Origin: Candidatus Aenigmatarchaeota archaeon
GTDB taxonomy: Archaea; Aenigmatarchaeota; Aenigmatarchaeia; CG10238-14; SCSR01
Length of the DNA: 64,000 nucleotides
Assembly: GCA_038998625.1 (NCBI GenBank)
Contig: JAWADS010000001.1
Location: 9,222 to 73,221 of the forward strand
Direction of reading: 5' to 3'
Shown: in pieces, positions 38,015-56,899 of the stretch
Layout of the letters: every line of letters begins with the position of its first letter
Numbering within the stretch: the first letter of the stretch is position 1
Translations under genes and position numbers: made by a program
The notes under the pieces: model-generated
Seen by the model: only the letters and a program-made list of their open reading frames with translations
Database searches by the model: none
What the model was told of the DNA's origin: nothing

Positions 38015-38134
38015 TGGGGTCGGAGGGATTCGAACCCTCGTTAACCGGTTGCTTCTTACTTCTCATAGCTCCATATACTGGAGCCGGTTTTCTAATCATG
38101 GAAGATGTCTTAGACCTAGCTAGACCACGACCCC
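38015..38134 (-). tRNA. tRNA-Trp(CCA) with two predicted introns (about 17 nt after position 26; about 28 nt in anticodon loop)
   Basis: Minus-strand read: GGGGTCG-TG-GTCT-AGCTAGGTCTA-AGAC-A-[tcttccatgattagaaa]-ACCGG-CTCCA[gtatatggagctatgagaagtaagaagc]AA-CCGGT-TAAC-GAGGG-TTCGAAT-CCCTC-CGACCCC-A; perfect acceptor and T arms. Confidence 0.6.
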
Positions 38135-38235
38135 AGCCACCAGTGGGATTCGAACCCACAACCCCCTGATAACTTTCTGTCATTTTTCCAGTTATCAGGT
38201 ACAAGTCAGGTGCTCTACCGTTGAGCTATGGTGGC
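38135..38235 (-). tRNA. tRNA-Thr(UGU) with about 29-nt canonical-position (37/38) intron
   Basis: GCCACCA-TA-GCTC-AACGGTA-GAGC-A-CCTGA-CTTGTA[cctgataactggaaaaatgacagaaagtt]A-TCAGG-GGGTT-GTGGG-TTCGAAT-CCCAC-TGGTGGC-T; directly abuts tRNA-Trp. Confidence 0.7.
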
Positions 38236-45498: not shown

Positions 45499-45581
45499 TG
45501 GGCCTGTCCGGAATCGAACCGGAGTTTCGACCGTGTGAGGGTTTAACGCTTCGTCGCGTCCTACCACTAGACTACAGGCCC
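45499..45581 (-). tRNA. tRNA-Val(CAC) with predicted 12-nt intron inside the anticodon stem
   Basis: GGGCCTG-TA-GTCT-AGTGGTA-GGAC-G-CGAC[gaagcgttaaac]C-CTCACAC-GGTCG-AAAC-TCCGG-TTCGATT-CCGGA-CAGGCCC-A; removing 12 nt gives a perfect 5-bp anticodon stem. Confidence 0.65.
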
Positions 45582-49280: not shown

Positions 49281-49566
49281 TTAATAAAGAGAGCGGGAGT
49301 GCGCCCTTGGTTGTTACATATCTATAAACTATTTAACCCAAATCCCCTTCTCAGCTCAGTGACTTTCAAGCACCACACTAACTAGCTTATGGCTGCTTGG
49401 TTCCCCACCTGACCAGGTTCGCTAGTTAGTTGGCCCTGAAAGGCTGAGCCTCTTAGTTAGAGATTTGGAATAGCCTATAGATATGTACCGCCCAAAGGCT
49501 TCGACTCGGCCATCAGGACCATTTGCCGATGTAGGCGAGGCCCAGCCGCCCAGGTCTAACTCCCGC
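49281..49566 (-). ncRNA. signal recognition particle RNA (7S/SRP RNA)
   Basis: Minus strand contains CCTGGTCAGGTGGGGAACCAAGCAGCCATAAGC, matching the universally conserved SRP helix-8 motif (compare E. coli 4.5S CCAGGUCAGGUCCGGAAGGAAGCAGCC); 5' GCGGGAG pairs with 3' CTCCCGC; about 286 nt and GC-rich relative to surroundings. Confidence 0.7.
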
Positions 49567-55009: not shown

Positions 55010-55122
55010 GATTTTTATTTAAATTGAGATAATAAAAAATTTGAAGGAAACTCTTTATCTTTTTACATATTTTTCATTTTGATACAAATTTCCATACTAT
55101 ATTGTTTAAAAATTTACATCAA

Positions 55123-55266
55123 TGCAGGGGGTGGGATTTGAACCCACGAAGGCACTAAGCCACGAGGTTTCTTATCTTCATCCTATCAGAGCTCAAGTAA
55201 ACCTCTATCTTGAGCTTCGCGCAACTTTAAAATCTCGCGCCATTGACCAGGCTAGGCGACCCCTGC
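55123..55266 (-). tRNA. tRNA-Leu(CAA) with about 58 nt of intron sequence (probably two introns flanking the anticodon loop)
   Basis: GCAGGGG-TC-GCC-TAGCCTGGTCAAT-GGC (Leu-type D arm)...CTCAAGA anticodon loop...TGGCTTAGTGCCTTC long variable arm-GTGGG-TTCAAAT-CCCAC-CCCCTGC-A; 144 nt against about 86 expected. Confidence 0.55.
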
Positions 55267-55314
55267 ATGCAATAGTAGAACACTTTAATAAATATTTTTT
55301 TCATTTAAAAAGTC

Positions 55315-55932
55315 TTATTCCTCAACAACTCCCAGGCCAGATCTAAGTTGTTCTATCTGACTTTTGAGGTCTGCTAGTGTGGCTTCTATGCTGGCTACTT
55401 CTTCCATATGGGGAAGTAATTCTTCTCTAAAGCCGCTAGGTCTTAGCAACTCAGAATCCAAATCCAAAATTTTTTGCTCAATTTTCTCTAAAGATTCTTG
55501 CACTAACTTTGAATTTTCTTCTCTAAGTTTATCTAATTCATTTAAAACAGCTAGGCTGTTTTTTAAAAGAACAATAGAAGTTTTCAATTGGGCCAAATGG
55601 TTTAAAATCTGTTTATATCTATCCAATTTAACAAAAAGAGGTGCAGTTAAAACTTTTTCATGTTTCTCTTTTTCTATTTTTTCTCTATGTACTAGAGGCT
55701 GAGTTTTTGTTTCTACTTTTGTTTCTACTTTTAGTGGAACTTTAACTTCTATTGAGGGTTCTTCCCCAGAAACTTCTTGTTGCTTGACCTCTAATTGTTT
55801 TTGCGGTTCTGATTTTATAGGCTCTGTTTTTTGCTCATTTTGTAATTTCATTATTTCTTCAATGGTAGGCAGCTTAATGTTTTCTTCTACCGGAGGAGCC
55901 GAAGTCTCTTTTTTCTTCCTTCCAAATATCAT
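55315..55932 (-). CDS. coiled-coil protein, hypothetical
   Basis: 205 aa; N-terminal low-complexity KE-rich region then heptads. Confidence 0.35.
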   Translation of the reverse strand: MIFGRKKKETSAPPVEENIKLPTIEEIMKLQNEQKTEPIKSEPQKQLEVKQQEVSGEEPSIEVKVPLKVETKVETKTQPLVHREKIEKEKHEKVLTAPLFVKLDRYKQILNHLAQLKTSIVLLKNSLAVLNELDKLREENSKLVQESLEKIEQKILDLDSELLRPSGFREELLPHMEEVASIEATLADLKSQIEQLRSGLGVVEE

Positions 55933-56008: not shown

Positions 56009-56094
56009 TGCGCCAGCCGGGATTTGAACCCGGGCCCTAAGCTTGGCAAGCTTCCACAACTTTTTATGTCCTAACCAGGCTAGACTACTGGCGC
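56009..56094 (-). tRNA. tRNA-Gly(GCC) with predicted 12-nt intron in the 5' half of the anticodon stem
   Basis: GCGCCAG-TA-GTCT-AGCCTGGTTA-GGAC-A-TA[aaaagttgtgga]AGC-TTGCCAA-GCTTA-GGGC-CCGGG-TTCAAAT-CCCGG-CTGGCGC-A. Confidence 0.6.
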
Positions 56095-56813: not shown

Positions 56814-56899
56814 AGCCCCGAGTGGGATTTGAACCCACGACCCAGTGCTTACGAGGCACTTAAGCTTAAATTTGCTCTACCAGACTGAGCTATCGGGGC
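56814..56899 (-). tRNA. tRNA-Thr(CGU) with predicted 12-nt intron between D arm and anticodon stem
   Basis: GCCCCGA-TA-GCTC-AGTCTGGTA-GAGC-A-[aatttaagctta]-AGTGC-CTCGTAA-GCACT-GGGTC-GTGGG-TTCAAAT-CCCAC-TCGGGGC-T. Confidence 0.6.

Follow-up and report, generated by a model that had tools for sequence, protein, structure and literature searches.

Gene identity and extent

How is a tRNA gene to be read when extra sequence lies on both sides of its anticodon loop, and could that sequence do more than be removed? In the window, that is, the whole 64,000-nt stretch of Aenigmatarchaeota DNA analyzed here, the question is raised by positions 55123 to 55266, where a first-pass annotation had placed a tRNA-Leu(CAA) gene with about 58 nt of intervening sequence. 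Our results point to a tRNA-Leu(CAA) gene with two introns, at tRNA positions 30/31 and 37/38, a reading to which we assign a probability of roughly 0.85 on the strength of sequence comparisons. The Rfam tRNA family (RF00005) matches exactly 55123-55266 with 35.7 bits, where the gathering score is 29, leaving about 60 nt unaligned in the anticodon region, and no Rfam family besides tRNA was found at the locus at E ≤ 1. The strand, which the annotation had left unstated, is minus; the RNA reads from 55266 to 55123, and RNA positions are obtained by subtracting the window coordinate from 55267. The predicted parts of the gene are as follows.

55123..55266, minus strand: tRNA-Leu(CAA) gene, whole, 144 nt (Rfam match and in silico splicing to an 86-nt tRNA)
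55234..55266, minus strand (RNA 1-33): exon 1, with the acceptor 5' strand, D arm, nt 26, and anticodon-stem nt 27-30 (CGAG) (alignment; parse of 38 family genes)
55216..55233, minus strand (RNA 34-51): predicted intron 1, 18 nt, AUUUUAAAGUUGCGCGAA, at tRNA position 30/31 (BHB scan; alignment gap; same-site introns in relatives)
55209..55215, minus strand: exon 2, 7 nt, GCUCAAG, tRNA nt 31-37, with the anticodon CAA at 55210-55212 (parse, in silico splicing, and alignment)
55169..55208, minus strand (RNA 59-98): predicted intron 2, 40 nt, at the canonical position 37/38 (parse, splicing, module analysis, and alignment)
55123..55168, minus strand (RNA 99-144): exon 3, with A38, stem strand CCUCG, long variable arm, T arm, acceptor 3' strand, and A73 (alignment and in silico splicing)

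Default ARAGORN missed this gene. When both inserts were cut out in silico, however, the 86-nt product was accepted by plain ARAGORN as tRNA-Leu(caa), and when either insert was left in place there was no call. The spliced product is a class II tRNA with an anticodon stem of five Watson-Crick pairs (CGAGG/CCUCG). The elements that the annotation had listed are all present, namely, the D arm GCC-TAGCCTGGTCAAT-GGC, the anticodon CAA in the loop CUCAAGA (CTCAAGA in the DNA), the long leucine-type variable arm GGC-UUAGU-GCC, the T arm, and an acceptor with A73; CCA is not encoded in exon 3. The intervening sequence likewise comes to 58 nt in total, as 18 + 40.

It is in the register of the anticodon stem that the annotation had to be revised. 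The 3' strand had been given as TCTCG, which is absent, and the sequence is CCTCG (RNA 100-104, window 55163-55167). The 18-nt length of the first gap stands, but a contiguous 5' strand CGAGA does not, as the strand is made of CGAG (RNA 30-33) and G52, with the insert shifted by 1 nt. The earlier register, with a cut after A34 and a stem CGAGA/CCUCG, yields the same anticodon but an A.C mismatch, and we prefer to join G33 to G52. Accordingly, the count of two introns was right, while their positions move from 31/32 and 39/40 to 30/31 and 37/38; since the second is the canonical site, only the first intron is non-canonical. The overlapping 74-aa open reading frame that had been called spurious (55122-55346, plus strand) does exist, and no Pfam family matched it.

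As for the setting, the window is archaeal, with 32% G+C and an archaeal SRP RNA, and insertions are found in all six of its tRNA genes. A TATA-like A/T-rich box, ATATTTATTAAAG, lies about 21-33 nt upstream of the leucine gene, and an oligo-T tract lies downstream. An upstream box of a similar kind is present in a relative (L154).

Relatives and alignments

A search with the 3' exon, one genome per species, returned at least 120 loci, which are archaeal tRNA-Leu genes. Among the loci listed, the closest exons belong to Aenigmatarchaeota MAGs and are nearly identical to those of the window gene. The D arm and variable arm of L001 are identical to those of the window gene, and L073, a Leu(UAG) gene without introns, has a CGAGG/CCUCG stem as well. 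In addition, a metagenome scan with the intron 2 motif recovered 47 loci, of which 43 are tRNA-Leu(CAA) or tRNA-Leu(UAA) genes; the window sequence is not among them. Parsing of the family genes gave 38 distinct genes.

By blastn, a region with a neighboring tRNA and a 97-aa open reading frame is common to L153, L071, L154, L167, L132, L156, L136, and L161, so the Leu(CAA) genes of these eight loci are same-locus orthologues. Six of them carry a 13-nt intron where the window gene has intron 1, and in the remaining two (L153 and L071) that intron is missing. In MAFFT alignments, L153, L071, L073, and L144 show a gap of 18 columns that coincides exactly with RNA 34-51, and the intronless L073 also shows a 40-nt gap at RNA 59-98. 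Together with the in silico splicing, the gaps against syntenic orthologues uphold the earlier claim of a tRNA-Leu(CAA) gene with two introns around the anticodon loop. Furthermore, the anticodon stem, read across the intron, is 100% paired in a 28-gene alignment, with double-sided changes at all five pairs, and no CAA gene of the family departs from the loop sequence CUCAAG.

The first intron

The BHB motif consists of two 3-nt bulges on opposite strands, a 4-bp helix between them, and helices outside, and it is cut after the second bulge nucleotide. When the 144-nt precursor was scanned under relaxed and strict definitions of the motif, dozens of chance matches appeared, and with BHB-like motifs this frequent, a BHB alone carries no weight. 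A restored cloverleaf, orthologues, and covariation taken together, in contrast, go beyond chance. Only one solution of the scan, RNA 34-51, restores the tRNA and has orthologue support. Its predicted central helix is formed by two strands.

55236..55239, minus strand (RNA 28-31): 5' strand CGCG, followed by the bulge AG↓A with the 5' splice site (BHB scan)
55218..55221, minus strand (RNA 46-49): 3' strand CGCG, followed by the bulge AA↓G with the 3' splice site (BHB scan)

In hBHB notation, H is CGCG/CGCG, h is 2 bp, and h' is 1 bp, with G27-C53 and G26.U54 as outer pairs. Excision joins CGAG to G52 and produces a continuous anticodon stem.

Twelve other genes are interrupted at this site, by introns of 11-14 nt. 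With the window gene included (introns of 11-18 nt), all four central pairs form in 13/13 distinct genes, through six combinations of strands: CGGC/GCCG, CGGC/GCUG, CGCG/CGCG, CGAC/GUCG, CAGC/GCUG, and CGCC/GGCG. The 5' strand of the helix is exon sequence (tRNA nt 25-28), and the intron side covaries with the exon side. Bulges of the 30/31 introns follow the patterns AG↓N and A(A/U)↓G next to an outer helix of 2 bp. When the 3' strand was slid by 1-3 nt as a control, the mean for these introns fell to 0.2-2.5 pairs. On these patterns of pairing, intron 1 is predicted to be a regular hBHB intron at 30/31.

The second intron and its splice site

Related Leu(CAA) and Leu(UAA) genes have a single intron of 25-35 nt, and intron 2 is its homologue. 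One further element bears on its removal.

55171..55174, minus strand (RNA 93-96): UAAG, presumed 3' strand of a relaxed central BHB helix, followed by the bulge AA↓A38 (3/4 pairs with C32-A35)

The candidate helix consists of C32-G96, U33-A95, C34.A94, and A35-U93, and its 3' bulge adjoins the 5-bp anticodon stem. Across the family, the corresponding helix reaches 2/4 pairs in most CAA genes, 3/4 in UAA genes, and 4/4 only in L089 and L095, and these counts do not exceed those of a control in which the strand is shifted by one position; the BHB is therefore a relaxed one. Placement of the intron at 38/39, which the identity of A59 and A99 would allow, was rejected, as it leaves only 2/4 central pairs and breaks the G31-C39 pair. 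Thus the search for BHB motifs at both junctions, proposed with the annotation, gave unequal results: a regular motif for intron 1 and, for intron 2, what appears from the sequence to be a relaxed motif at best, with three of four central pairs. DPANN endonucleases with a specific insertion loop have been associated with many disrupted tRNA genes (PMC5829648).

A guide-like module in the second intron

Intron 2 also contains a compact module that resembles the D'/C' half of a box C/D guide. Three candidate elements make it up.

55190..55197, minus strand (RNA 70-77): antisense ("guide") element CUUGAGCU, 8 nt (pairs with RNA 51-58, A-GCUCAAG, which includes tRNA nt 31-37)
55186..55189, minus strand (RNA 78-81): box D'-like CUGA (the partner of C34 is the fifth nucleotide upstream)
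55175..55181, minus strand (RNA 86-92): box C'-like AUGAAGA (6/7 positions of RUGAUGA; 4 nt after D'; K-loop with D')

The order is antisense element, CUGA directly after it, a UAGG spacer, and AUGAAGA. In archaeal box C/D RNAs, a D' box, a spacer of 3-9 nt, and a C' box form a K-loop, and the methylated nucleotide pairs with the fifth nucleotide upstream of the box (N+5) (PMC4836650). In the window gene, the nucleotide in that position is G73, and its partner is C55, the wobble base C34. The D'- and C'-like boxes each contain the GA of a K-loop with tandem sheared G.A pairs. Moreover, the 8-bp guide:target helix is present in both the MFE and the centroid structure of the precursor, and nearest-neighbor energies make it 4-16 kcal/mol more stable than both BHB conformers.

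The layout of the module, N+5 included, is found in 39/39 distinct Leu(CAA) and Leu(UAA) genes, a count to be read with the knowledge that boxes, spacing, and N+5 of the metagenome set (43 genes) were imposed by the search pattern, so that those genes are not independent evidence for boxes or spacing. Eight genes are free of this bias, namely, the window gene and seven found through the 3' exon only (L021, L071, L090, L054, L034, L089, and L095), and 8/8 keep the geometry, with an antisense element, a D'-like box, a spacer of 3-7 nt, and AUGA(A/U)NN in fixed relation. Compensatory change is seen where the first nucleotide of D' pairs with the sixth of C', the pair being C-G in CUGA/AUGAAGA, U-A in L021 (UUGA/AUGAUAA), and A-U in L089 and L095 (AUGA/AUGAUUU). 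On the guide side, pairs 32-36 are formed in 100% of 28 sequences, pair 34 being CG in 18 and UA in 10. The match C34:G or U34:A holds in 43/43 tRNA hits, a result for which the search pattern had allowed all four combinations; this CAA/UAA covariation may stem from a single ancient split between paralogues. The module is confined to Leu(CAA) and Leu(UAA). No such intron is found in Leu(GAG) or Leu(UAG) genes of the same lineage (L001, L073, L081, L029, and L038), and the Leu(CAA) and Leu(UAA) introns of Thaumarchaeota, Nanoarchaeota, and Parvarchaeota have plain BHBs without it.

In a box C/D guide sRNA, a terminal box C (RUGAUGA) and box D (CUGA) form a K-turn closed by a terminal stem, and the guide duplex usually measures 10-12 bp. 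The duplex of the window gene has 8 bp, and those of the family range from 6 to 11 bp. By eye, the 144-nt precursor, intron 1 included, and its immediate flanks (leader and trailer) contain no terminal box C/D, that is, no second K motif. Two candidates for boxes were set aside: a CUGA that occurs in intron 1 of some orthologues belongs to the helix strand and bulge, and an alternative C' frame, (N)GAUGA, is not universal and would leave a spacer of 0-1 nt in some genes. The precursor thus has the internal D'/C' K-loop and N+5 of a box C/D sRNA. With neither a terminal C/D pair nor a bipartite architecture, the module is not classed as a box C/D sRNA. Signatures of fibrillarin and L7Ae were absent from the six-frame translation of the window under a crude regular expression, which is uninformative for the genome as a whole.

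From these sequence features, we put at about even odds the possibility that the intron 2 module is a cis-acting, single-motif guide for 2'-O-methylation of the wobble ribose (Cm34). Alternatively, in a gene of the same structure, the module could be structural only, either as a K-loop bound by L7Ae or as an anticodon-intron hairpin that serves folding, protection of the anticodon, or the order of splicing. We regard this second possibility as rather unlikely, but it has real arguments behind it. There is only one K motif in the precursor, and natural archaeal guides are described as invariably bipartite; a single-motif complex was active in vitro but lost site specificity (PMC1635284). In archaea, L7Ae binds many K-turns that are not guides (PMC5539422). 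The guide helix competes with both BHB conformers and could therefore be a timing device. Furthermore, the GAAG that may supply the 3' strand of the BHB overlaps the C'-like box in most genes of the family, and splicing may account for some of that box's conservation. Against this last point, the window gene and L144 keep AUGAAGA although a separate UAAG supplies the BHB strand. Moreover, a structural hairpin needs no exact N+5 relation to nt 34 in every lineage, including L089 and L095 with their differing boxes. A structural role also sits poorly with the confinement of the element to two leucine isoacceptors that are the predicted position-34 targets of Pyrococcus C/D sRNAs and whose wobble ribose is methylated by TrmL in bacteria.

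A tRNA-Trp gene in the same window

Additional evidence on the guide reading comes from 38015-38134, which ARAGORN -i calls "Leu(gag)" but which is actually a tRNA-Trp(CCA) gene with two insertions. In the second insertion, UGGAGCU is complementary to the anticodon loop and puts C34 at N+5; AUGA and then GAAG come after it. The first insertion contains CUUC-CAUGAUUA. The two insertions combine into a textbook K-turn, with a 4-bp CUUC/GAAG stem, a 3-nt CAU bulge, G.A and A.G pairs in tandem, a U.U pair, and U-A and A-U pairs. No relatives of this gene were found among the fetched loci. Because the tRNA-Trp gene shares the antisense, N+5, and box layout, and because intron-guided Cm34 in tRNA-Trp is an established precedent, the Leu module is, by analogy, very probably the same kind of device as the tRNA-Trp intron guide. 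A more general proposal, on which we stop a little short of even odds, is that, in Aenigmatarchaeota and some further DPANN lineages, the canonical introns of Leu(CAA) and Leu(UAA) act as natural single-K-loop "hemi" cis guides for Cm34 or Um34, as would the tRNA-Trp gene of the window, whose K-turn C and D boxes would lie in two different introns.

Alternative readings of the gene structure

Other readings of the locus dispute the gene structure itself. If this were a decaying tRNA pseudogene whose inserts are never removed, then the low Rfam score of 35.7 bits, the miss by default ARAGORN, and the weak BHB of intron 2 would be accounted for. But the low score is due to the inserts alone. All exon positions are intact, exon 3 is identical to that of L153 and L073 at 46/46 nt, and alignment shows the differences from relatives in the D stem to be compensatory. 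Both inserts also obey rules that hold throughout the family, and the TATA-like box and oligo-T tract flank the gene, such that we consider decay improbable.

There is similarly little to recommend removal of the 40-nt insert in two steps, as nested or tandem introns, for example with a first cut at a CUCA/UGAG BHB (bulges AG↓A and CU↓C). Drawn by hand, that helix has 4/4 pairs, compared with 3/4 for the canonical one, and intron 2 of the window is 12-15 nt longer than in most orthologues. However, the helices flanking CUCA/UGAG have only 0-1 bp, the intermediate would be left without a good second BHB, and the 25-27-nt introns of orthologues are too small to hold two introns; we think this reading barely credible.

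The least plausible reading is a single intron of 58-60 nt with another anticodon, either UUA in the loop UUUUAAA (an ochre suppressor) or a shifted UUU, for although ARAGORN -i, the intron-aware run that the annotation had proposed, finds the gene with one forced 60-nt intron as Lys(ttt), a 58-nt excision gives a class II "tRNA-Stop(tta)," and a 3/4 BHB-like helix UUUU/UAAG can be drawn by hand, the UUA version has an A31.C39 stem mismatch, lysine identity conflicts with the long variable arm, the BHB of intron 1 is perfect and covarying, and UUUUAAA sits in an insert that the syntenic orthologues L153 and L071 do not have, whereas CUCAAG is invariant in CAA genes. A single-intron fold of equal quality, which the annotation had named as the result that would overturn it, thus fails, with UUU or UUA as its anticodon and no orthologue support.

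A possible order of events

If the module is a guide, then the competition of the helices with one another suggests an order of steps, which we offer as speculation. The unspliced precursor would first adopt the fold with guide:target helix and K-loop. L7Ae, Nop5, and fibrillarin might then assemble on the K-loop and 2'-O-methylate C34 to Cm34. After methylation, the RNA would refold into a form competent for splicing, in which the BHB of intron 1 would be cut first, restoring the continuous anticodon stem, and the relaxed BHB of intron 2 would be cut afterwards. Both introns would presumably be removed by the archaeal splicing endonuclease and RtcB ligase, giving the 86-nt class II tRNA.

Relation to known systems

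Multiple-intron tRNAs are known from Thermoproteales, Methanopyrus kandleri, and DPANN archaea (PMC4090602, PMC4033280, PMC5829648). The window gene shares with them an intron at a non-canonical site (30/31) in addition to one at 37/38, BHBs or relaxed BHBs over the borders, and the tendency to be missed by standard finders. It differs in belonging to an Aenigmatarchaeota-type DPANN lineage, in having mini-introns of 11-18 nt at one fixed site with tRNA nt 25-28 as helix strand, and in the extra, functional-looking module carried by intron 2.

The closest parallel to the module is the box C/D guide in the tRNA-Trp intron of Euryarchaeota (Haloferax volcanii; Pyrococcus sR50), which directs Cm34 and Um39 (cited in PMC4090602, PMC11408192, PMC7994747) and which reviews describe as a unique intron-encoded guide (PMC4090602, PMC11408192). 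In both systems, a 37/38 intron is complementary to the anticodon loop of its own tRNA, C34 lies at N+5 of a D'-type box, and the folds for methylation and for splicing are mutually exclusive. Yet the tRNA-Trp intron, at about 100 nt, makes up a complete guide that has boxes C, D', C', and D and two guides, whereas the Leu module fits one K-loop and one guide into 25-40 nt and belongs to other tRNAs, Leu(CAA) and Leu(UAA), of another phylum. Another DPANN archaeon, Nanoarchaeum equitans, has a C/D-like RNA in the 66-nt intron of elongator tRNA-Met, which makes it the second case reported; that RNA belongs to another tRNA and is reported to be stable and abundant, with box C and box D (PMC3491384).

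The predicted target itself, position 34 of tRNA-Leu(CAA) and tRNA-Leu(UAA), is the same as that of C/D sRNAs acting in trans in Pyrococcus (PMC7994747; PMC7668247), which are free-standing and bipartite, unlike a guide embedded in its target's own intron. The expected product, Cm34 or Um34, is also that of TrmL in bacteria and Trm7-Trm734 in eukaryotes (PMC4615657, PMC3763551, PMC6847430), Trm7 being responsible for position 34 of tRNA-Leu in yeast. The two are unrelated, protein-only enzymes that use no RNA guide. Our literature search, whose coverage was incomplete, turned up no account of a tRNA-Leu intron that carries a guide, so novelty is unproven.

Implications

Taken alone, a two-intron gene is one more disrupted DPANN tRNA. 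Nevertheless, standard finders miss it or call it something else (Lys or Stop), and the genome would thereby seem to have no tRNA-Leu(CAA). The guide reading, if correct, would reach further, extending the textbook tRNA-Trp case to new tRNAs and a new phylum. If the broader view of these introns as hemi-guides is true, then leucine would be a third tRNA family with intron-borne guides, and the module would be the first natural guide without the bipartite C/D and C'/D' architecture that is thought to be universal and needed for specificity. The module could also serve as a minimal, natural, single-motif substrate for asking whether the box C/D enzyme needs two K motifs. For the organisms themselves, a guide in the intron would be a concrete selective reason to keep tRNA introns in very small genomes.

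A putative split box C/D motif in tRNA-Trp

The gene at 38015-38134 (-) was called Leu(gag) by ARAGORN -i, an assignment that we rejected in favor of tRNA-Trp(CCA) with two insertions, one of approximately 17 nt after nt 26 and another of 28 nt at 37/38. For the first of these, a strict bulge-helix-bulge (BHB) misses by one nucleotide. Each insertion carries a box-like element, and there is a guide, that is, a sequence antisense to the gene's own anticodon loop, which sets C34 at N+5, opposite the fifth nucleotide upstream of the D-type box:

38015-38134 (-), tRNA-Trp(CCA), two insertions
38093-38099 (-), C-box-like AUGAUUA, first insertion
38067-38073 (-), guide UGGAGCU
38063-38066 (-), D-box-like AUGA, second insertion
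38135-38235 (-), tRNA-Thr(UGU), intron of about 30 nt

AUGAUUA and AUGA can form a textbook K-turn with a CUUC/GAAG stem, and together these elements would be a box C/D motif divided between two introns. The adjoining tRNA-Thr(UGU) gene abuts tRNA-Trp without any spacer, which suggests a dicistronic precursor.

Possible alternative splicing and additional introns in tRNA-Leu genes

Two candidate anticodon loops were observed within one Leu gene in three Aenigmatarchaeota MAGs (L012, L084, and L024), each loop having a valid 30/31-type 3' splice site just before it (GCUGAA|G-CUCAGAA and GCCGA[A/G]|G-CUUAGGU). Judging from sequence, Leu(CAG) or Leu(UAG) could in principle be obtained by choosing between the two 3' sites, and the arrangement has been kept in all three MAGs. 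In Leu(UAA) genes (e.g., loci L160, L054, and L122), CUUAAG is palindromic, and as a result G-CUUAAG occurs a second time, within the guide. Either of two splice-site pairs is predicted to yield an identical mature tRNA, so that the exon-intron assignment of these genes is formally ambiguous.

Within this clade, interruptions reach three per gene. Among metagenome contigs with genes of the same Leu family, L137 has an additional intron in the T loop (GGGTTCAAATgcctttggctgaaAATCCCAC), and L148 and L150 have one in the D loop.

Mini-introns and other RNA genes

Four further RNA genes were annotated in the window:

45499-45581 (-), tRNA-Val(CAC), 12-nt mini-intron, anticodon-stem 5' strand
49293-49566 (-), archaeal SRP RNA (Rfam RF01857, 136.9 bits)
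56009-56094 (-), tRNA-Gly(GCC) candidate, 12-nt insertion near position 27/28
56814-56899 (-), tRNA-Thr(CGU), 12-nt mini-intron, anticodon-stem 5' strand

The SRP RNA is shorter than its model, with 40 contiguous model positions unmatched in the alignment. The candidate at 56009-56094, which ARAGORN called Phe(aaa), is more likely tRNA-Gly(GCC); Gly(gcc) genes are present in syntenic relatives (n = 15 across fetched loci). No clean BHB could be drawn by hand for its insertion.

For the mini-introns, the best hand-drawn BHBs lie at 28/29 in tRNA-Val(CAC) (GACG/CGUU) and at 27/28 in tRNA-Thr(CGU) (GAGC/GCUU). In both, the D-stem 3' strand plus nt 26-28 serves as a helix strand, as it does in the 18-nt first intron of tRNA-Leu(CAA). 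The mini-intron style shared by these three genes looks like a lineage-wide trait.
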